From a virus (Duplodnaviria > Heunggongvirae > Uroviricota > Caudoviricetes): DNA of 51,177 nucleotides. Shown piece by piece: positions 612-47,098 of this stretch; positions within the stretch are counted from its first letter, which is position 1; each line of letters starts with the position of its first letter. The notes under the pieces were generated by a model that was not told the DNA's origin, did no database searches, and worked only from the letters and a program-made list of their open reading frames with translations. The stretch lies in the IMG/VR virus record IMGVR_UViG_2579778634_000021. One strand, given 5' to 3'. The position numbers and the translations under genes were made by a program.

Positions 612-1280
612 ATGGTGAAATCAATGAAAAAAAACACAGATGATGGGGCTAAAATTTACACACCACTTACCCTAAAGCTTTATGACTGGTGGGTTTTGGG
701 AGTATCAAATCGGCTTGCATGGGGATGTCCTACAAAGGAACACCTTCTTCCACACTTTCTGGAACATGTAGGTAACAACCATCTGGATATTGGTGTTGGA
801 ACTGGGTTTTACCTTACTCACGTACCTGAGAGTAGTCTGATATCTTTAATGGATTTGAACGAAGCTAGCCTGAACGCGGCATCTACAAGGGCTGGGGAAT
901 CAAAAATTAAACATAAAATTAGCCATGATGTTTTTGAACCTTATCCCGCGGCGTTACATGGTCAATTTGATTCCATTTCCATGTTTTACCTTCTTCACTG
1001 CCTGCCTGGAAATATATCTACAAAAAGCTGTGTAATACGCAATGCGGCGCAGGCCTTAACTGACGATGGAACTCTATACGGAGCCACAATTCTTGGCGAT
1101 GGAGTTGTGCACAATAGCTTCGGTCAAAAACTGATGCGCATTTACAATCAGAAAGGCATCTTTTCAAACACAAAAGATTCCGAAGAAGGCTTAACACATA
1201 TACTCTCAGAGCATTTCGAGAATGTTAAAACCAAGGTTCAAGGTACTGTAGTAATGTTTTCCGCTTCAGGGAAAAAATAG
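612..1280 (+). CDS. class I SAM-dependent methyltransferase (cargo gene)
   Basis: 222-aa ORF with the Rossmann motif I DIGVGTGFY and an acidic post-I motif LMDLNE. AT-rich compared with its flanks and the only plus-strand gene in a minus-strand tail operon. Confidence 0.65.
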   Translation: MVKSMKKNTDDGAKIYTPLTLKLYDWWVLGVSNRLAWGCPTKEHLLPHFLEHVGNNHLDIGVGTGFYLTHVPESSLISLMDLNEASLNAASTRAGESKIKHKISHDVFEPYPAALHGQFDSISMFYLLHCLPGNISTKSCVIRNAAQALTDDGTLYGATILGDGVVHNSFGQKLMRIYNQKGIFSNTKDSEEGLTHILSEHFENVKTKVQGTVVMFSASGKK

Positions 1281-28336: not shown

Positions 28337-30310
28337 TTATGCTGCTACGGCATTCACACCAACAGTAAGACTTTCAATCAGCACAGGGTAAGTTGCCGCA
28401 TTTCCGGTAATATCCGTAATTGCCAGCGCGTTGGCCTCAAAGGCTGCATTCGTCCATCTGGTCAGCGTAAACGGTTTTCCTGCTGCATTATCAAGCACCG
28501 GCGTGACGTTCAGCGAGCCACCACCCGGGAAGCGGAAAGTCAGCGTGTGCCAGTCGTGATCGAACGGACCATAACTACCAAGCCGCTGTGATGTGGTGTT
28601 TGCATGATACATCACATTGATGTTTGTTTTATCAGTCTGCAGATAGAAGGCCGCAATATAACCCTCCTCTGATTCCGCTCCCGGCCATCCACTACCGCGC
28701 CAGTAAATACCCGCAGAATATTGATTTGCAGAAGCATTGAGAGATACATCATCGGGGATTTTAAAGCGCAGCGTGATTTCACCGCCGTTATCGAACAGCT
28801 CCTTCCCCTTACCGGCATCAATTGCGTGCGATACTTTCCAGGTCTTTTTCTGTGCAAGACCATTTTCTGGTTTTTCAAGACGAAGGGCTTTTTTACCTGA
28901 ACCACTGTCACTGACCAGCGTGTTTTTGACATCTGTCAGCGTCCAGCCCTGCGAAGCCAGAGCGGCATTTTCCGCATTCACATCATAAGCCAGCACTGAC
29001 TGTATCTTTGTCGGGACAACGGCTTCAGGCTGAGTATCGCCACTCTCCTGTGCTGGTTGCGATACGCCTCCGCCTGAAGAAACCGCGGCTTTTGTCACTT
29101 TCCCGGAAACAAAATCTGCCACTCTGCCCACATGCAGAAGAATGGCTGTTGCCAGACGGTCGGAAATAATTCCGCGACGCGCCCATGAACCAAAGTGGGT
29201 TTTACGATCGGATGTTGTCCAGCTCTTCGCATCCGTTCGTCCACCGGAACCATAATACCCGATAGCCGGAATATCCGGGTCTTCTGACGGTTCATTGGTC
29301 CCGACTTTCTGACCATTGTCATCCATCATAAACGGCACAAAGAAGATATTTTTACCGGCTTTGGTTTTGTATGCGCCATAGACGGCATCGTATTGCGCTG
29401 AATACGTCTCCTTCCAGTAGTACGTCGTGTCACCACAAATCCAGGGCACCAGAGAAGGAGAAGCACCAGCGCACTGACCGGATACTCCCGCCAGGTCAGA
29501 ACGGTATTTTTCCACCATGGCATCAAACATGGCGGGCTGACTGGCGTACGCTCCCTGTTTTAAATCAAACTCGCCCTGCATCCAGACAACACAAAGCAGT
29601 ATGTTTTTGGGGTTTGCCTTCAGCGCGGCCTGAGTGCGTGTCAGCAGGTCTTTATACAACGGCTTATCAACGCCCCATCGTTCAGATTTATCCGACGCTC
29701 CTGAACTTTCACTGAACGTTCCGTCAGCACCGGCTGTAAACGCAGAGCCACCACGACAGCACGGCACTAACAAAATACCCGCATTTTCCGGCATAAAGGG
29801 CAACAGCTTTTTGGCAATATGCAATCCCTGTCCGACACACCCATACTGCTCTGCGCTGGCTTTCGGATGAGAAAAACGGCTCAAATCCTGCACATCATGC
29901 AGGCAGTGGTCCGCCGGAATGATGTCGTTATATGCACAGGCCGCACCACCCGGTGTCACCGTACTGCGACGCGCCAGCTGTTTAATACGCGGGTCCGGAC
30001 GGTCATATGTCTCCGGCAGCGGCAGGCCTTCACCATACGCCATGCCGTTTGACTGTCCGGCCAGCGCAATGACAAAGTAATATTCTGGTTCAACAACAAC
30101 AGTCCGGGTACCATCTCCCCCCGGTGAAACTACCGGAGAGGTCATATCCCCTTCAGCGACTATAGCCTGGATAAATTCAGCACCATAACCCGCGTTTGAG
30201 ATAATCGGACTACCATAGGGTTGCCAGCCTTCCTTCAGTTTTTGCGTCAGTTTTCCTGCGAGGTCTGACGGCGATGATGCCCTGACCACGTCATAGTGTT
30301 TAAATGCCAT
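28337..30310 (-). CDS. nanS: prophage sialate O-acetylesterase-like protein (NanS-p type)
   Basis: About 657 aa from MAFKHYDVV. N-terminal domain typical of prophage NanS-p, a GQSN esterase motif, and the usual position between the Q region and the lysis cassette. Confidence 0.75.
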   Translation of the reverse strand: MAFKHYDVVRASSPSDLAGKLTQKLKEGWQPYGSPIISNAGYGAEFIQAIVAEGDMTSPVVSPGGDGTRTVVVEPEYYFVIALAGQSNGMAYGEGLPLPETYDRPDPRIKQLARRSTVTPGGAACAYNDIIPADHCLHDVQDLSRFSHPKASAEQYGCVGQGLHIAKKLLPFMPENAGILLVPCCRGGSAFTAGADGTFSESSGASDKSERWGVDKPLYKDLLTRTQAALKANPKNILLCVVWMQGEFDLKQGAYASQPAMFDAMVEKYRSDLAGVSGQCAGASPSLVPWICGDTTYYWKETYSAQYDAVYGAYKTKAGKNIFFVPFMMDDNGQKVGTNEPSEDPDIPAIGYYGSGGRTDAKSWTTSDRKTHFGSWARRGIISDRLATAILLHVGRVADFVSGKVTKAAVSSGGGVSQPAQESGDTQPEAVVPTKIQSVLAYDVNAENAALASQGWTLTDVKNTLVSDSGSGKKALRLEKPENGLAQKKTWKVSHAIDAGKGKELFDNGGEITLRFKIPDDVSLNASANQYSAGIYWRGSGWPGAESEEGYIAAFYLQTDKTNINVMYHANTTSQRLGSYGPFDHDWHTLTFRFPGGGSLNVTPVLDNAAGKPFTLTRWTNAAFEANALAITDITGNAATYPVLIESLTVGVNAVAA

Positions 30311-30513
30311 TATTCCTCCCGGCAGGGATAGTGTATGCAATCAAGATAAGGTGCGGGCTGACGTCAGTCATGGACAAGGGTTCAGAAACAGGAGGATGAC
30401 TACAGCCCGCAATACGAAAAAGACCATACAGTTGCGCAGAGTGATTACTGTCGGGTATTATTCGCCAGCTGAAAATTGATCACTTCACGTTTTGTTGTTT
30501 ATTCCTTGCCACC

Positions 30514-35112: not shown

Positions 35113-35295
35113 TCACCTTGTTTTCCTCGCACGATGTCTTAGCCACCGGATATCCCACAGGTGAGCCGTGTAATTGAAGGTTTTAACGTCAGATTCTTTT
35201 GGGATTGGCCTGGGTTTATTTCTGGAGCGTTTCGTTGGAAGGTATTTGCAGTTTTCGCAGATGATGTCGGTGATACTTCGTCGCTGTCGCCTCAT
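35113..35295 (-). CDS. ninE: NinE (copy 2)
   Basis: 60 aa, [64 protein letters not shown] overlap with the upstream methylase stop. Confidence 0.85.
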
Positions 35296-35819
35296 GCCGC
35301 CCTCCTGACGCCCTGCCCGATCGCCATCAATGCCGCTTTGGATACGGTAGTAAACATCCGTCGAGGACTGATGAACGGTCGCCAAATCAGCAGCATGGAA
35401 CCTTTGCTGTTTCCCTTCTTCTCCAGCCCTGTCGATGGTTCGATAAAATTAATCCGTCCATCAGTGATGATGCGAACTTCGTCAACACTCTCCAGAGCCT
35501 TACTGAACCATCCGACAGACATATCCTCTGGCACAAGCATCACTACCGTCTGTCGTTGTTGTATGCACTGCTCAGCGGCTTTTTCCACCCACGGCCTGAT
35601 ATTGCTGTACGGTGGGTTATTCCAGATTGCACCGTGGCTTACCCACTCAGAATTGAGCGCGTCGTCGGCCTCAGTTAGCCAGTGAGCACACAGAGCATTT
35701 TTGTCGCTCGCTGCCGAATCCAGCCAGAATCCAAACTCAATATCCAGTGCATCAAAAAGCCAAAGCGGCGTTTGCCAGCAGTCCTTGTCGTGTGCTGGCG
35801 TATTTGATTTGATAGTCAT
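35292..35819 (-). CDS. phage DNA N6-adenine methyltransferase (Dam type)
   Basis: 175 aa with the NPPY catalytic motif (IWNNPPYSN) and an N-terminal CWQTP motif. ATGA-coupled to ninB copy 2. Confidence 0.8.
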
Positions 35820-36262
35820 GCAGCCTTCCCTTTTCGTTGTGACCATTCATACTCTCGCCAGGAGTCATCACTCCACCGCACGTTGCGCTCTGAGCCGAAC
35901 CAGAACATGATTTCGATAAGCTCAGTCATGTTGGCCTTTCGCATTTTGCTGGTACGCACACCAAGCATGACAACGCCACCGTCGATACCAGGCACACTTC
36001 GTTGCTCCAGTTTTTTGGTCTTAAGCCACAGGGCAGTGAACAGGTCTTTCCAGTCTTCCGGCGCCAGCCGTTGACCATGCCATAGCACCTGACGCGAAAC
36101 ATCGTTCAGCATCGGCCACATACGGTCATTCTGCGCTTTGCTGCGCTTGGGTTCTTTAACGTGGACTTCGTGGGGTGACTTGTCGTCGATGGGTAGTGAG
36201 AGAATGGCGTCTATGGCGTTATTTCTGATTGCTTCGTTGCGAAGCAGAAAGGTTTGCTTCAT
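35816..36262 (-). CDS. ninB: NinB recombination protein (copy 2)
   Basis: Start taken at MKQTFLLRNEAIRNNAIDAIL. Paralog of 33668..34078. Confidence 0.8.
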   Translation of the reverse strand: MKQTFLLRNEAIRNNAIDAILSLPIDDKSPHEVHVKEPKRSKAQNDRMWPMLNDVSRQVLWHGQRLAPEDWKDLFTALWLKTKKLEQRSVPGIDGGVVMLGVRTSKMRKANMTELIEIMFWFGSERNVRWSDDSWREYEWSQRKGKAA

Positions 36263-39488: not shown

Positions 39489-40136
39489 ATGAAAACGATG
39501 CATGAAATTATCGGGGAAAGGATCAAGTCCCTTAGAGAAGCTAAAGGACTTAGCCAGGCTCAATTGGCCAAGCTTTGCGGCTGGGCTGCGCCTTCACGCC
39601 TGGGGAACTACGAGTTAGGAACAAGAAAGGTTAGCGCGGATGACGCGCTGGTTCTTGGGGCGGCACTCGGCGTATCTCCGGCAAAAATAATGTTTGGCGA
39701 GGATTCAGACGCTGTATTTCGCCAATATGAGTACCCGTTATTTTCTTCAGTGCAGGCCGGGCCGTTTTCGGAGGTTGGAAGCTACACAGCAAGCGATGCA
39801 AAGGCATGGGTCCCAACGACCACAAAAGCCAGCGAAAAAGCTTTCTGGCTTGAGGTGAAAGGCCATTCTATGACTGCGCCACAGGGCGTAAGGCCGAGTT
39901 TTCCTGAGGGTATGCTGATACTCGTTGATCCGGCCGAGCCGGTAGAGTCTGGGGATTTCTGCGTGGCTTCTGCAAATGGTGATTCAGAGGCAACGTTCAA
40001 GAAGTATGAGAAGGATGCAGGGGTTAGTTACTTGGTTCCATTGAATCCGGCATACAGAACCCTGGACTGCGATCACACATGCCGCATCATAGGCAAGGTA
40101 GTTAAGGCTCAGTGGCCTGAAGAGACGTTTGGATGA
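39489..40136 (+). CDS. cI: CI repressor (helix-turn-helix plus S24 LexA-like autopeptidase domain)
   Basis: 215 aa. N-terminal helix-turn-helix and a C-terminal S24 region (GHSM ... K). Confidence 0.9.
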
Positions 40137-40186
40137 TGGATGGTCGCAGAGATGCTCGTAGAGCATACAGCGATGCAGGAGAATTT

Positions 40187-40621
40187 ATGGCACTTAATTT
40201 AGAAAGAATATCTTTTATAACCCCATTTGATAGCAGCGAAGAACCCAACCAACCGACGCTTAATTTTACATGCAATGAATTTCCTGCGCGGCTATCGATT
40301 GATTTCAGGGTTGGTATGATCGGGTTGAAACCAAATTCAAGATATAATTTGGGTATTATGGTAATCCCCGCGCACCTAATTATAAAAAAAGGTGAGGAAA
40401 TTCAATTCCCTGACGGCTCTTCGGAATCAGTTTCACTTTTCATCGATACGAAAGATAGCCATTTTGAAACAGGGGTTGGCGGACAGGTAATAGTAACATT
40501 GAAAGAAATTAGGGTCCCAGCTAAAGGGCTGTATAGTGTTATAGGGATATTGCAAGATAATGAAGACCCTAAAAATGAACTTCATAAAAATGAATCATTT
40601 TTCACCGTAGAGCTATTATGA
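40187..40621 (+). CDS. hypothetical protein A of the cI-linked cassette (rexA position)
   Basis: 144 aa from MALNLERISF, after an AGGAG ribosome-binding site. A frame-compatible ATGA start at 40133 is also possible. AT-rich; no recognisable domain. Confidence 0.5.
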   Translation: MALNLERISFITPFDSSEEPNQPTLNFTCNEFPARLSIDFRVGMIGLKPNSRYNLGIMVIPAHLIIKKGEEIQFPDGSSESVSLFIDTKDSHFETGVGGQVIVTLKEIRVPAKGLYSVIGILQDNEDPKNELHKNESFFTVELL

Positions 40622-41238
40622 GTGACGACAGTAATTTAAATAATCATGGAAAGCAAGACACCAACATATCTGAAAGCCGGAGGTTGAAGGTTGTTGGCGG
40701 TTCCGATTTTGAGGCTGAATTTGATAATTCTCCCACCAAGGTGCAAAATAATTACATAAAACCGCCACAAACGGAGGAAGAAGTGGGAACGATCAGCAGA
40801 GAGGAACTTGATGCTCGCTTAGCTGCTAATAAAGCAGAGATGGAGTCTATTGCTTCTTCCATTAGGACTGACATGGCTCTATCTCGTGAAAGCGTTAATG
40901 TCCAATTTGCATCACTTAATGCAGCCATAAGCTCTCTATCGTCCAAGATCGATGGAAAGATGGATAGCGCTGCTGGCGATATAAAAGCAATTAATGGGAG
41001 ATTCGAAGGAATTCAAGGACAAATAACAGGGGTTAATACCGCAATTAGTGGTGTTCAGTCGGGTATTTCTATACGATTAGCCATTTTTAGTGTCATTATC
41101 GCTGTAATAGTTGCGATTCCCGGGCTGGTATCAGCTTTAAAGTCAGACCACGCACCTTTGCAACAGCCTTCCACTTTGCAAGCGCCGCCACAAAATACCC
41201 AGCCAACAGACAACAAAAAAATCACTCCCCAGCATTAA
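40618..41238 (+). CDS. hypothetical coiled-coil membrane protein B of the cI-linked cassette (rexB position)
   Basis: 206 aa. ATGA-coupled to protein A. Ser/Ala-rich coiled-coil-like middle, one C-terminal transmembrane helix (LAIFSVIIAVIVAIPGLVSAL), and a Pro/Gln-rich tail. Confidence 0.5.
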   Translation: MSDDSNLNNHGKQDTNISESRRLKVVGGSDFEAEFDNSPTKVQNNYIKPPQTEEEVGTISREELDARLAANKAEMESIASSIRTDMALSRESVNVQFASLNAAISSLSSKIDGKMDSAAGDIKAINGRFEGIQGQITGVNTAISGVQSGISIRLAIFSVIIAVIVAIPGLVSALKSDHAPLQQPSTLQAPPQNTQPTDNKKITPQH

Positions 41239-41626: not shown

Positions 41627-41743
41627 CTACGTGGCTGAAAAGCCAGATCACCCAACCACATAAGCTGTGGGATGCAATGCCGAAGCAACCGTCTCAGGAG
41701 GAGCTTCGAGATTGCATCGCCAAAGTTTATTCGGGAGGAATCT

Positions 41744-42016
41744 ATGTCCAGAAAAACAGAATTTAAAGGCACCGCAGCTTCTCGCCGTAGAGCTCGTCGC
41801 GCAAACCTGCAAAGTCAGGAGTCGATTAGCTCCGACAAGCTACACAGGCCAACCCCTTCACGAGTGGTCTTGCAATGCAAGCGCAAACCAGCAATGAGAG
41901 CAGAAGTTATAACTCTGACAACGTTGACCAGAAAATATGAAGGTTCAACTTGTCTTCCAAACGTAGCCATTTACGCTGCAGGCTACCGTAAATCCAAACA
42001 ACTGACAGCAAGATGA
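41744..42016 (+). CDS. N: N-like antitermination protein
   Basis: 90 aa with an N-terminal arginine-rich motif (SRRRARRANLQ). GGAGG ribosome-binding site. First gene after pL and nutL. Confidence 0.7.
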   Translation: MSRKTEFKGTAASRRRARRANLQSQESISSDKLHRPTPSRVVLQCKRKPAMRAEVITLTTLTRKYEGSTCLPNVAIYAAGYRKSKQLTAR

Positions 42017-42077
42017 CTTGTGTTGGTCGCCAGAAAATGAAATTAGGCAGCAAACCACTTATTTGAGAGGAATTAAT

Positions 42078-42701
42078 ATGTCATCAATCCGCTTAACTAC
42101 GAGAATGAAAGAGGAAATCGCTCGTAACGCTTTAATTAAGTCCGGGGTGTTCACTGAACTTGAAGAAGTAACAAAGTTAAAGAACCAGCTTGCACTTGAC
42201 GCCAGAGTTATTGCGTTTGGCGGGAAAAAGAAAACCGAAGAAGTGGACCAGCTGGCATCAAAGTTAATGGCTGCAAGTGAGGAACTTCAAAAGCTGGGAT
42301 GTTCATTTTACTCATGCGATGTCAGTTCATGTTCGATTTATCTGACTGTATCTGGAAGAAGGGTTGGCTGGCATTCATACGGAAAAGACGGCAACGGTGA
42401 AGATATATTGCTCCCTACCCCCGACAAAGATAAATGCATGTTTGACGCAGAACACAAAATAACAAAAAGGTTTGATGAAATCTGCGCATTGCAACAAAAA
42501 CTTGAAGCCAGGAAAAAGGATATAGAATCAAACGTATGGGCTGCTTTGAACTCAGTCACAACAGTTAAGCGACTTATTGAAGTTTGGCCTGAAAGCAAAG
42601 AGTTGCTACCAAAAGAAGCAGATAAAGCAAGTGCAGCACTTCCTGCTTTACGGGTAGAAGATTTGAATAAGATGATTGGACTTCCTTCCGAGGCCGCATA
42701 A
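42078..42701 (+). CDS. hypothetical protein (early-left operon, ral/sieB slot)
   Basis: 207 aa from MSSIRLTT with a GAGAGG ribosome-binding site. AT-rich; no known domain recognised. Confidence 0.5.
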   Translation: MSSIRLTTRMKEEIARNALIKSGVFTELEEVTKLKNQLALDARVIAFGGKKKTEEVDQLASKLMAASEELQKLGCSFYSCDVSSCSIYLTVSGRRVGWHSYGKDGNGEDILLPTPDKDKCMFDAEHKITKRFDEICALQQKLEARKKDIESNVWAALNSVTTVKRLIEVWPESKELLPKEADKASAALPALRVEDLNKMIGLPSEAA

Positions 42702-43066: not shown

Positions 43067-43202
43067 AACACTTATGGCTATCCAGACTAAATTCACTATC
43101 GCCACTTTTATTGGTGATGAAAAGATGTTTCGTGAAGCCGTCGACGCTTATAAAAAATGGATATTAATACTGAAACTGAGATCAAGCAAAAGCATTCACT
43201 AA
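43059..43202 (+). CDS. kil: Kil (host division inhibitor)
   Basis: 47-aa [50 protein letters not shown] overlapping the cIII 3' end, as in lambda. Confidence 0.8.
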
Positions 43203-43275
43203 CCCCTTTCCTGTTTTCCTAATCAGCCCGGCATTTCGCGGGCGATATTTTCACAGCTATTTCAGGAGTTCAGCC

Positions 43276-43572
43276 ATGAACGCTTATTACATTCAGGATC
43301 GTCTTGAGGCTCAGAGCTGGGCGCGTCACTACCAGCAGATCGCCCGTGAAGAGAAAGAGGCAGAACTGGCAGACGACATGGAAAAAGGCCTGCCCCAGCA
43401 CCTGTTTGAATCGCTATGCATCGATCATTTGCAACGCCACGGGGCCAGCAAAAAAGCCATTATCCGTGCGTTTGATGACGATGTTGAGTTTCAGGAGCGC
43501 ATGGCAGAACACATCCGGTACATGGTTGAAACCATTGCTCACCATCAGGTTGATATTGATTCAGAGGTATAA
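43276..43572 (+). CDS. gam: Gam (RecBCD inhibitor), short form
   Basis: 98 aa, near-identical to lambda GamS. Confidence 0.9.
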
Positions 43573-43577
43573 AACGG

Positions 43578-44363
43578 ATGAGTACAGCACTCGCAACGCT
43601 GGCAGGGAAGCTGGCTGAACGTGTCGGCATGGATTCTGTCGACCCACAGGAACTGATCACCACTCTTCGCCAGACGGCATTTAAAGGCGATGCCAGCGAT
43701 GCGCAGTTCATCGCATTGTTGATCGTCGCCAACCAGTACGGCCTTAATCCGTGGACGAAAGAAATTTACGCCTTCCCTGATAAGCAGAACGGCATCGTTC
43801 CGGTGGTGGGCGTTGATGGCTGGTCCCGCATCATCAATGAAAACCAGCAGTTTGATGGCATGGACTTTGAGCAGGACAATGAATCCTGTACATGCCGGAT
43901 TTACCGCAAGGACCGTAATCATCCGATCTGCGTTACCGAATGGATGGATGAATGCCGCCGCGAACCATTCAAAACCCGCGAAGGCAGAGAAATCACCGGA
44001 CCGTGGCAGTCGCATCCCAAACGGATGTTACGGCATAAAGCCATGATTCAGTGTGCCCGTCTGGCCTTCGGATTTGCTGGTATCTATGACAAGGATGAAG
44101 CCGAGCGCATTGTCGAAAATACTGCATACACTGCAGAACGTCAGCCAGAACGCGACATCACTCCGGTTAACGATGAAACCATGCAGGAGATTAACACTCT
44201 GCTGATCGCCCTGGATAAAACATGGGATGACGACTTATTGCCGCTCTGTTCCCAGATATTTCGCCGCGACATTCGCGCATCGTCAGAACTGACACAGGCC
44301 GAAGCAGTGAAAGCTCTTGGATTCCTGAAACAGAAAGCCACTGAGCAGAAGGTGGCAGCATGA
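43578..44363 (+). CDS. bet: Bet single-strand annealing protein
   Basis: 261 aa, near-identical to lambda Bet. Confidence 0.95.
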
Positions 44364-45040
44364 CACCGGACATTATCCTGCAGCGTACCGGGATCGACGT
44401 GAGAGCTGTCGAACAGGGGGATGATGCATGGCACAAATTACGGCTCGGCGTCATCACCGCTTCAGAAGTTCACAACGTGATAGCAAAGCCCCGCTCAGGA
44501 AAGAAGTGGCCTGACATGAAAATGTCCTACTTCCACACCCTGCTGGCTGAGGTTTGCACCGGTGTGGCTCCGGAAGTTAATGCTAAGGCGCTGGCCTGGG
44601 GAAAACAGTACGAGAACGACGCCAGAACCCTGTTTGAATTCACTTCCGGCGTGAATGTTACTGAATCCCCGATCATCTATCGCGACGAAAGTATGCGCAC
44701 AGCCTGCTCTCCCGATGGTTTATGCAGTGACGGCAATGGCCTTGAGCTGAAATGCCCGTTTACCTCCAGGGATTTCATGAAGTTCCGGCTCGGTGGTTTC
44801 GAGGCCATAAAGTCGGCTTACATGGCCCAGGTGCAGTACAGCATGTGGGTGACGCGAAAAGATGCCTGGTACTTTGCCAACTATGACCCGCGTATGAAGC
44901 GTGAAGGCCTGCATTATGTCGTGATTGAGCGGAATGAAAAGTACATGGCGAATTTTGACGAGATGGTGCCGGAGTTCATCGAAAAAATGGACGAGGCACT
45001 GGCTGAAATTGGTTTTGTATATGGGGAGCAATGGCAATGA
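44360..45040 (+). CDS. exo: lambda-type 5'-3' exonuclease Exo
   Basis: 226 aa, near-identical to lambda Exo. Confidence 0.95.
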
Positions 45041-45195
45041 AGCATCCTCACGATAATATCCGGGTAGGCGCGATCACTTTCGTCTACTCCGTTACAAAGC
45101 GAGGCTGGGTATTTCCCGGCCTTTCTGTTATCCGAAATCCGCTGAAAGCACAGCGGCTGGCTGAGGAGATAAATAATAAACGGGAGAGTGTATGA
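45037..45195 (+). CDS. small hypothetical protein, translationally coupled
   Basis: 52-aa ORF ([19 protein letters not shown]...) with ATGA overlaps at both ends. Confidence 0.35.
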
Positions 45196-45944
45196 TTCAT
45201 TTTCACGGTGGTCCAATAACTCCCGATACCTGTGCGTTGAAAGCCTGGAAAGGCAGACACGCATTCATCAGTTTTGCTAATCCAGCTCAGATTGATCTGG
45301 CTTCCGAAGTCACCCAATCATTTGCTCTTGATAATGGTGCATTCACATTCTGGACAAAAAACAAGGCCATAGACTGGAATGAATATTACAGATTTGTTGA
45401 ACGCTGGGGTAATCACCCTCGTTTCTCATTCGCGGTTATCCCGGATGTTATCGGCGGAACCAGTGAAGAGAATGACGCCCTGATTGCGGCATGGCCTCAC
45501 GGTAAATTTATTGGTGCTCCGGTGTGGCACATGAACGAACCAGATGAGCGATTTATTCGTCTGTGCCATGAGTTTCCCCGCGTCTGCATCGGCTCGATGG
45601 GGGAATACGATGCAAAACGACCGAGAGCGTGTCGGGCTAAACTACGCGATCTTATACGTCATGTTGTAGATCAGTACGGCTACCCAATCACCAAGATTCA
45701 TGGGTTACGGATGTTAAATAAAGACATTTTTACTCATGTACCGCTTTCGTCTGCAGACAGCACGAACGTCGCAAGAAATATAGGCATCGACAAATCCTGG
45801 GTAGGTTCGCCATATGCTCCCGCAAGTAAAGAAACCCGTACGCAAGTTCTTGTGGAACGCATTGAATCATTCAACAGTGCCAGTTCACTTAATTACAACG
45901 CTGAACGGGACGTCTTTACCCCTCAACTGGCATTCGAAGTGTGA
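45192..45944 (+). CDS. hypothetical protein; candidate TGT-fold (DpdA-like) DNA-modifying enzyme
   Basis: 250 aa. Motifs LDNGAFTFW (compare TGT DSGGFQ), VIPDVIGG and HGLRM...LSSADSTN (compare the TGT MGVG...FDCV region). Assignment is tentative. Confidence 0.35.
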   Translation: MIHFHGGPITPDTCALKAWKGRHAFISFANPAQIDLASEVTQSFALDNGAFTFWTKNKAIDWNEYYRFVERWGNHPRFSFAVIPDVIGGTSEENDALIAAWPHGKFIGAPVWHMNEPDERFIRLCHEFPRVCIGSMGEYDAKRPRACRAKLRDLIRHVVDQYGYPITKIHGLRMLNKDIFTHVPLSSADSTNVARNIGIDKSWVGSPYAPASKETRTQVLVERIESFNSASSLNYNAERDVFTPQLAFEV

Positions 45945-45951
45945 GGCCAAT

Positions 45952-46167
45952 ATGACAATAGAACATAATAACGCCCTTCGCAGCATTGCCCGTCAGGCTA
46001 ATTCTGAAATCAAAAAAGCCAGACAGCAGTTTCCGGATAAAAACGTCGATGACATTTGCCGTAGCGTACTGAAGAAGCACCGCGAAACGGTAACGCTGAT
46101 GGGATTCACACCGACTCACTTAAGTCTGGCAATCGGTATGTTAAACGGCGTCTTTAAGGAACGGTGA
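45952..46167 (+). CDS. hypothetical protein
   Basis: 71 aa from MTIEHNNALRS. Confidence 0.4.
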   Translation: MTIEHNNALRSIARQANSEIKKARQQFPDKNVDDICRSVLKKHRETVTLMGFTPTHLSLAIGMLNGVFKER

Positions 46168-46265
46168 ACATGAAAAGCAAAATCATCAGGGAGCTACAGG
46201 CTCCTTTTTTATTATTCGCATTCACCCTCAAGCGTATTAACCAACAATTCAGGGATTAATGGAAG

Positions 46266-46487
46266 ATGGCAGACCTCATTGATTCAGCATCAGAAATTGA
46301 AGAATTACAGCGCAACACAGCAATAAAAATGCGCCGCCTGAACCACCAGGCTATATCTGCCACTCATTGTTGTGAGTGTGGCGATCCCATAGATGAGCGA
46401 AGACGCCTGGCCGTTCAGGGTTGTCGGACTTGTGCAAGTTGCCAGGAGGATCTGGAGCTTATCAGTAAACAGAGAGGTTCGAAGTGA
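46266..46487 (+). CDS. TraR/DksA-family C4 zinc-finger protein (lambda Orf73-like)
   Basis: 73 aa with CCECG...(17)...CRTCASC, the pattern of TraR-type RNA polymerase-binding zinc fingers. Confidence 0.7.
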   Translation: MADLIDSASEIEELQRNTAIKMRRLNHQAISATHCCECGDPIDERRRLAVQGCRTCASCQEDLELISKQRGSK

Positions 46488-47098
46488 GCGAAATTAACTA
46501 TCAGGAACTGCGTGAAAAGGCAGAGAAAGCAACTAAAGGAAGCTACATCGTAGGGCATACATCTGTTAACCAGCACGGCAATTTAACAGGAGTTTTTGTT
46601 TGTCAAAAATGGAAAGGAGAACCCGGTGGCGTGATTGCCGAATGTCATGTTAACTGCCTGATTGAATCAGATGCTCAGGCTTATGCAAACGCTGAATTTA
46701 TAGCAGATGCTAACCCAGCTACCGTACTGGCGCTACTGGATGAACGGGAAAGAAACCAGCAATACATCAAACGCCGCGACCAGGAGAACGAGGATATTGC
46801 GCTTACGGTTGGGAAGCTGAGAGTTGAGCTTGAGGAGACAAAATCAAAACTCAACGAGCAGCGTGAGTATTACGAAGGTGTTATCTCGGATGGGAGTAAG
46901 CGCATAGCAGAGTTAGAAAGTGATTCTCAGGCACAAAAGTTAGTTGAAGCAATCATTGTTGCGATAGAAAACGAACAGGAACGTCTTTTTGATGAAGATT
47001 ACCTAATGGATTCGAAAGAATGCATTGACGTAATTCGTGAAGAAGTAAAGCGATGGAATGATTCCCGCGCCGCTGGCATTCGCATCAAAGGAGAGTGA
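46484..47098 (+). CDS. ea22: Ea22-like protein
   Basis: 204 aa. The central block [63 protein letters not shown] and the C-terminus GIRIKGE match lambda Ea22. Confidence 0.7.

Follow-up and report, generated by a model that had tools for sequence, protein, structure and literature searches.

The stretch of DNA analysed here (IMG/VR virus record IMGVR_UViG_2579778634_000021, 51,177 nucleotides, hereafter called the window) is a lambda-like prophage in which the N, gam, bet and exo genes all lie on the plus strand. Its positions 43196 to 46843 share 99.8% identity with Escherichia phage PhiR5_1. The early-left unit of this prophage also carries a gene for a 250-residue protein, which a first-pass annotation had tentatively described, on motif resemblance, as a DpdA-like enzyme of the tRNA-guanine transglycosylase (TGT) fold, inserting 7-deazaguanine bases into phage DNA. 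This description appears largely right: as judged from sequence comparisons, the protein is predicted to be a stand-alone ("singleton") DNA-guanine transglycosylase of the DpdA family, folded as a compact (beta/alpha)8 TIM barrel. The identification as a DpdA is correct but already known as a bioinformatic prediction, a nearly identical protein of Shigella phage SfI having been listed in 2019. The operon containing gam, bet, exo and the dpdA-like gene is taken to be the pL operon, because N and gam are present. The main features are the following.

45192 to 45944, plus strand: dpdA-like gene, 250 amino acids, stand-alone phage DpdA family, predicted TIM-barrel enzyme of the TGT superfamily
D47/N48/F51, D85, H113, G134/S135, H170 and D189/S190 (numbering of the window protein): predicted active site
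45037 to 45195, plus strand: DUF1317 open reading frame (ORF), 52 amino acids, lambda orf60a-like (Pfam PF07026, E 1.8e-33)
44360 to 45040, plus strand: exo, YqaJ-type exonuclease of the early-left unit (Pfam PF09588, E 5.5e-30)
43578 to 44363, plus strand: bet, RecT-family annealing protein of the early-left unit (Pfam PF03837, E 2.7e-33; phrog_252)
43276 to 43572, plus strand: gam, early-left unit (Pfam PF06064, E 2.1e-64)
41672 to 42016, plus strand: N (N_peptide, PF25694, E 1.2e-31)

Both the ORF list and the sequence support a real 250-residue gene. Inspection of the sequence reveals an ATGA at 45037-45040, where the exo stop overlaps the start of the DUF1317 ORF, and a second one at 45192-45195, where the stop of this ORF overlaps the start of the 250-residue gene. 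The 52-residue ORF is thus tied to exo on one side and to the dpdA-like gene on the other, as had been proposed. A Shine-Dalgarno-like GGGAGAG is found 4 nucleotides 5' of the ATG at 45192. The range initially given for the enzyme, 45037 to 45944, has the right end, but its start is that of the DUF1317 ORF, which counts 52 residues from the ATG at 45037 and 54 when the start is placed at 45031.

The dpdA-like gene is widespread. At E<=1e-3, its product has 6182 relatives counted as 90%-identity clusters, and 1700 among 50%-identity representatives. It is encoded in 100 of 5426 complete E. coli genomes (about 2%), every time on the chromosome and labelled as hypothetical by PGAP, and is also spread across Enterobacterales prophages. 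Comparison with relatives of 84-90% amino acid identity shows 114-131 codons differing synonymously and 25-40 non-synonymously, with a non-synonymous rate (dN) of about 0.1; since the synonymous rate (dS) is saturated, a dN/dS ratio cannot be expressed as a number and these raw counts are used instead. Such a synonymous excess indicates purifying selection on the coding sequence. A set of 80 related loci was assembled from viral contigs whose homologues show 84% identity or more, the genes within 10 kb being examined. In one of these close homologues (contig L019, 522 to 1271), the 250 codons are interrupted by an in-frame TAG, so that it may be a pseudogene, unless the stop is due to a sequencing error.

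Membership in the phage DpdA family is supported by several independent comparisons. The window protein matches the PHROGs family phrog_887, named "queuine tRNA-ribosyltransferase", with an E-value of 2e-99, and the same family also matches the DpdA of Escherichia phage CAjan (8e-96), that of Salmonella phage 7-11 (7e-74) and gp38 of Pantoea phage MED16 (3e-70). A family profile was derived from an alignment of 58 relatives at 30-52% identity (alignment A2). Compared by hhalign with the experimentally validated CAjan DpdA, it gave a probability of 98.9% (E 1.5e-17, 173 columns), with the pairs LDNGAF/LDSGAF, PVWH/PCFH, HGLRM/HAFGI and SADST/SCDSS (family profile first, CAjan DpdA second). CAjan dpdA is essential for the formation of dPreQ0, which replaces about 32% of G in CAjan DNA (PMC6884629). 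By BLASTP, the window protein is 39% identical to MED16 gp38 (E 2e-47) and 35% identical to 7-11 DpdA (E 1e-36). Its identity rises to 68% with the BTP1 and SPN3UB proteins and to 99.6% with SfI YP_009147480, which bears the RefSeq name "queuine tRNA-ribosyltransferase". Supplementary Data 1 of Hutinet et al. 2019 (PMC6884629) lists this SfI protein as a DpdA whose phage has no further gene of the pathway, and HK106, SPN3UB, BTP1, SEN1, PEAT2 and 7-11 figure in the same list. The window protein is therefore very probably a member of the phage DpdA family.

The predicted structure points in the same direction. An AlphaFold2 model obtained with 34 homologues as input (pLDDT 78.7, pTM 0.78) shows eight beta-strands alternating with helices, consistent with the (beta/alpha)8 fold of the TGT superfamily. 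When this model was compared with BFVD by Foldseek, 24 matches were found at E<=1e-3, most of them to phage proteins named "queuine tRNA-ribosyltransferase".

The four motifs on which the initial description relied are all present in the 250-residue protein, namely LDNGAFTFW (residues 46-54), VIPDVIGG (82-89), HGLRM (170-174) and SSADSTN (186-192). Within the 58 relatives of alignment A2, D47, H170, D189 and S190 are invariant, and conservation is 90% or higher at H5, G6, A50, P84, D85, H113, E116, G134, L172 and R173. A MAFFT alignment of seven proteins (the window protein, its CAjan, MED16 and 7-11 counterparts, that of Caulobacter phage DMCA and two fusion proteins) retains D47, G49, A50, F51, D85, P110, H113, G134, H170, P184, D189 and S190 as invariant. 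The anticipated conserved residues are therefore recovered at D47 (LDNGAF), D85 (IPDV), H170 (HGLRM) and D189 (SADST). A loss of D85 in CAjan, suggested by hhalign, which pairs this residue with a serine, was considered and rejected: MAFFT aligns the aspartate of CAjan VLDGIG with D85 (IPDVIGG), in a column without variation. No conserved cysteine is found among the invariant or near-invariant positions of alignments A1 and A2, and the chain ends about 60 residues past the aspartate of strand beta8.

In the model, the invariant residues are predicted to lie at the C-terminal ends of strands 3, 4, 5, 6, 7 and 8. The bacterial DpdA of Salmonella Montevideo (S. Montevideo) uses D95 as general acid/base together with the stacking F99, D130 and H181 for base reading, and D256 as nucleophile (PMC10164549). 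The invariant residues of the window protein follow the same strand order as in TGT and in this enzyme, and the D-x3-F spacing equals that of D95/F99 (PMC10164549). Conservation thus suggests that a catalytic aspartate, an acid/base aspartate with its stacking phenylalanine and a base-reading aspartate-histidine pair are all present.

These elements lead to a mechanistic proposal, the insertion of a host-supplied 7-deazaguanine into phage DNA by the window protein, which we favour, by analogy with characterized enzymes, with moderate confidence. The gene would be transcribed from pL, and hence be silent in the lysogen and expressed at an early stage once induction or infection has occurred. 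On the model of TGT and the S. Montevideo DpdA, D189 would attack C1' of a flipped-out deoxyguanosine to give a covalent intermediate of enzyme and DNA, D47 would act as general acid/base, F51 would stack on the base, and D85 and H113 would read its Watson-Crick edge. Guanine would then be replaced by a free 7-deazaguanine base drawn from the E. coli queuosine pathway, either preQ0, its amide form ADG, or preQ1. The product expected from two tested relatives would be a sparse modification, with about 0.02-0.13% of G present as dADG, rather than bulk replacement.

The origin of the base has to be sought in the host queuosine pathway, because the phage is devoid of FolE, QueD, QueE and QueC. Searching the window by tblastn with the CAjan FolE, QueD, QueE, QueC and YhhQ-like proteins yielded nothing, the best match having an E-value of 0.06 over 17 residues. 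No enzyme of the preQ0 pathway was recognized by Pfam among 20 accessory ORFs of the window, and none of FolE, QueD, QueE, QueC or YhhQ was found within 10 kb of dpdA in the 80 close relatives. Linkage to preQ0/G+ synthesis genes is true of the phages with DpdA1 and DpdA2 pathways, not of the published singleton group, and the window phage, which lacks such a linkage, falls in the DpdA-only category. The absence of preQ0-synthesis genes from the window, as originally stated, is thus confirmed, and dependence on host precursors follows as a natural inference. The same dependence has been proposed for the third group of Hutinet et al. 2019, made of 76 DpdA-only phages that "could rely on preQ0 synthesized by the host" (PMC6884629). 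Host supply is also experimentally plausible by analogy, since the DpdA of Enterobacteria phage 9g, the nt-1 DpdA2 and the VH7D DpdA2, each expressed alone in E. coli, inserted host-made preQ0 or preQ1 into DNA.

Distant relatives, whose gene context was sampled from phage records only, provide a further connection. In Caulobacter phage DMCA, a 98-residue PTPS/QueD ORF overlaps the start of the DpdA homologue, and the metagenomic protein P0255 is a QueD(PTPS)-DpdA-like fusion. The family is tied by this adjacency and fusion to the 7-deazaguanine pathway. QueD stands alone here beside a DpdA-like gene, without QueE, QueC or FolE. A third protein, P0238, is a Dam-DpdA-like chimera encoded in a 186/P2-like prophage. 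Its initial value as a sign that the substrate is DNA was later reduced, since the methylase ends immediately past DPPY and the first 37 or so residues of the DpdA part are missing; its sequence suggests a chimera formed by a deletion between neighbouring genes. The three loci are found at L085 2840 to 3847 (P0255), L002 5705 to 6726 (DMCA) and L086 8001 to 9266 (P0238).

Several observations weigh against the proposed enzyme and its function, and are considered together here. The first ones concern the family assignment. The Pfam TGT model (PF01702), NCBIfam and the PADLOC DpdA models do not match the window protein, and no Pfam match at E<=1, to TGT or otherwise, was obtained for it or for 57 diverse relatives. 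The A2 profile gave no match to E. coli Tgt by hhalign (0.4%), Tgt being used as a single sequence and not as a profile. Profile searching of PDB sequences was empty, the sequence and profile searches of PDB chains returning only spurious matches (HipT, a designed repeat protein, GCN4), and Foldseek comparison of the model with the PDB retrieved only generic TIM barrels with E-values above 1e-3. All this would suit an unrelated TIM-barrel enzyme with coincidental TGT-like motifs. Such a coincidence appears extremely improbable. The missing model matches do not count against DpdA membership, because the validated CAjan enzyme has no Pfam match either. The missing zinc site was also examined as an argument against membership and rejected, as CAjan DpdA is likewise devoid of a CxCxxC motif. 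A last structural point is that functions were mapped onto residues by inference from alignments and strand order, not from three-dimensional superposition.

The other unfavourable observations concern the function. Hutinet et al. noted that the singleton DpdAs of gamma-proteobacterial phages form separate clusters, and raised the possibility of a functional divergence, calling for more work (PMC6884629). In the virion DNA of phage 7-11, dADG amounts to 50 per 10^6 nucleotides, or 0.02% of G, and no modification was detected in Orion DNA (PMC6884629). In MED16 virion DNA, it reaches 354 per 10^6 nucleotides, or 0.13% of G, and none of the restriction enzymes tried was visibly affected. The base detected in DpdA-only phages is dADG, not dPreQ0, and we know of no DpdC-like hydratase in 7-11 or MED16. 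Our literature search gave no report on the lambdoid close clade, which includes SfI, BTP1, SPN3UB and the E. coli prophages. Because dADG is sparse in 7-11 and MED16 and MED16 shows no restriction protection, the role in restriction evasion initially associated with the protein is only putative.

These data raise the alternative of a diverged role, in which fold and chemistry would be preserved while the enzyme would handle another base (ADG, for instance, an amide formed by QueC as an intermediate) or a different target, be it tRNA or host DNA, for a purpose other than general anti-restriction. This is a minority possibility, which we consider unlikely. Every catalytic or base-binding position that the window protein shares with CAjan DpdA is invariant, and the QueD adjacency and fusion seen in relatives link the family to the supply of 7-deazaguanine. 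Moreover, dADG in 7-11 and MED16 is still a 7-deazaguanine modification of DNA, which makes DNA the most likely target.

If the modification is sparse, as expected, any protection it affords is likely to be site-specific, or directed against a particular defence system, rather than against restriction enzymes generally. The Dpd restriction-modification system occurs in some E. coli and Salmonella strains. The dADG content of 7-11 and MED16 DNA (0.02-0.13% of G) is comparable in order of magnitude to the figure of about 1 in 10^3 nucleotides reported for the Dpd systems of bacteria. It can be imagined that the enterobacterial singleton DpdA is an orphan modifier, converting a host precursor, possibly ADG, into sparse, sequence-specific dADG marks that would mimic the "self" mark of Dpd, by analogy with the phage orphan Dam methylases that imitate host methylation. 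This more elaborate scenario is speculative, and we give it a distinctly low probability.

A coupling of the dpdA-like gene to the exo-bet operon had been put forward; it holds in the window, but not as a conserved linkage. In the 80 related viral contigs, a lambda-type exo is found 5' of dpdA in 32 and DUF1317 lies directly 5' of it in 37. The exo-bet linkage is thus common, not obligatory. DUF1317 is an operon neighbour of dpdA and not a demonstrated partner: it was rejected in that role, since it follows exo in many phages, including many Stx phages, which lack dpdA.

Two terminator-like hairpins were noticed on the plus strand. The first one, at 45101 to 45123, has 9 pairs (6 GC) and a poor T tract, and lies within the DUF1317 ORF. 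The second one, at 46188 to 46206, combines 8 pairs with a T-rich tail and lies just 3' of the orf61-like gene that follows dpdA. Both would be passed in an N-antiterminated pL transcript. An ORF of 117 residues (45814 to 46167, plus strand), annotated as gp33 in SfI, overlaps the 3' end of dpdA and is probably over-extended; its part conserved in phrog_303 begins at the ATG at 45952 and encodes a lambda orf61-like protein of 71 residues.

Other modification-related and methyltransferase genes are found in the window. The Nmad5 ORF (42018 to 42701, plus strand), which encodes 227 residues from a TTG start, a later ATG being possible, contains the "nucleotide modification associated domain 5" (Pfam PF18757, E 1.5e-68; phrog_1965) and is placed between N and gam in the pL operon that also holds dpdA. 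A role as partner of dpdA was considered and rejected, the ORF being absent from SfI, from PhiR5_1 and from all 80 dpdA-related loci. Point mutations of nmad5 in Dhillonvirus have been linked to escape from the Tmn defence (2025; PMC11846954). A phage Dam-type DNA N6-adenine methyltransferase is encoded at 35292 to 35846 on the minus strand (PF05869, E 7.6e-65), in the nin region adjoining NinB, and is a second, better-understood DNA-modification gene of the prophage. A 222-residue protein with a class I S-adenosylmethionine-dependent methyltransferase domain (612 to 1280, plus strand; Methyltransf_12/23/25; phrog_2132, E 4e-157) is encoded in a moron-like position past the tail-fibre assembly gene.

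Two further loci of the prophage deserve a mention. At 28337 to 30340, on the minus strand, a 667-residue protein combines DUF1737, a sialate O-acetylesterase (SASA) domain and DUF6645, a layout known from the NanS-p esterases that Stx-type lambdoid prophages encode. Directly 3' of the cI-like repressor gene (39489 to 40136), two overlapping plus-strand ORFs (40133 to 40621 and 40618 to 41238) encode proteins of 162 and 206 residues, which belong to phrog_5893 and phrog_5820 and have no Pfam or PADLOC match. They occupy the spot of rexAB in lambda and of HipA-like genes in PhiR5_1, and represent a candidate prophage exclusion or defence pair.

If the enzyme is active, a lambda-like temperate phage would use a 7-deazaguanine from the host queuosine pathway to mark its DNA, without biosynthetic genes of its own. 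This would connect host tRNA-modification metabolism with the chemistry of phage DNA, with possible effects on defences based on restriction, CRISPR or glycosylases and on nanopore base-calling of such phages. A genetically tractable lambdoid prophage in E. coli would be in this respect a convenient system to study the function of DpdA-only phages and the base they use.

Among known systems, the closest ones are the singleton DpdAs of SfI, HK106, SPN3UB, BTP1, SEN1, PEAT2, 7-11 and MED16 (gp38), which, like the window phage, come without preQ0 genes and from hosts with a full queuosine pathway. There is no substantive difference from the SfI enzyme, the window protein being the same protein in another lambdoid prophage. 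The DpdAs of 7-11 and MED16 have all the core residues in common with it, but these are virulent phages, whereas the window gene belongs to the pL operon of a temperate phage. The DpdA1 enzymes of Queuovirinae (CAjan gp35, 9g) share phrog_887, the D-x-G-A-F and P-x-x-H motifs, the histidine of beta7 and the D-S of beta8 with the window protein, and CxCxxC is found in neither. The identity with CAjan DpdA is 19%, the window protein being about 56 residues shorter at its C-terminus (250 versus 306 residues). CAjan and 9g carry folE, queD, queE and queC beside dpdA and have about 25-32% of their G replaced, whereas these genes are missing from the window phage.

The bacterial DpdA of S. Montevideo (PDB 7UI4) is much larger, with 413 residues versus 250, and contains an insertion of about 128 residues (Ins8) and a structural zinc site, CxCx2Cx22H, both conserved in the bacterial DpdA family (PMC10164549) and not present in the window protein. 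The neighbours of the window gene are bet, exo, DUF1317, the orf61-like gene and TraR-like and Ea22-like genes, and not the dpdB (ATPase), dpdC and dpdD-K restriction genes of the bacterial system. PADLOC gave no match to bacterial Dpd for the window protein, and no DpdB or DpdC is evident among the neighbours of dpdA, no window-wide search having been aimed at these two proteins.

Cap10, a TGT-like accessory protein of type IV CBASS (PDB 9NTN), was also compared and shows 9% identity. H170 and D189 are separated by 19 residues, versus 22 for H226 and D248 in Cap10 (Cap10 preprint), and the two pairs resemble each other. One can envisage a protein that, like Cap10, acts on 7-deazaguanine linked to a protein, or that serves as a decoy for, or an inhibitor of, type IV CBASS or another defence using 7-deazaguanine, instead of modifying DNA. 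We hold it to be very unlikely. The operon partners of Cap10 are a CD-NTase with an N-terminal M(G/S)G(G/S)GG tail and the QueC-like Cap9; no QueC-like sequence was detected in the window by tblastn, no CD-NTase among the accessory ORFs by Pfam, and no match by PADLOC. The window gene lies in a phage early operon, not in a defence island.

Sequence similarity to E. coli Tgt (PF01702) is not detectable, and the window protein has neither Tgt's zinc subdomain nor its N-terminal beta-sheet lid region. The presumed substrates also differ, being DNA for the window protein and tRNA for E. coli Tgt.

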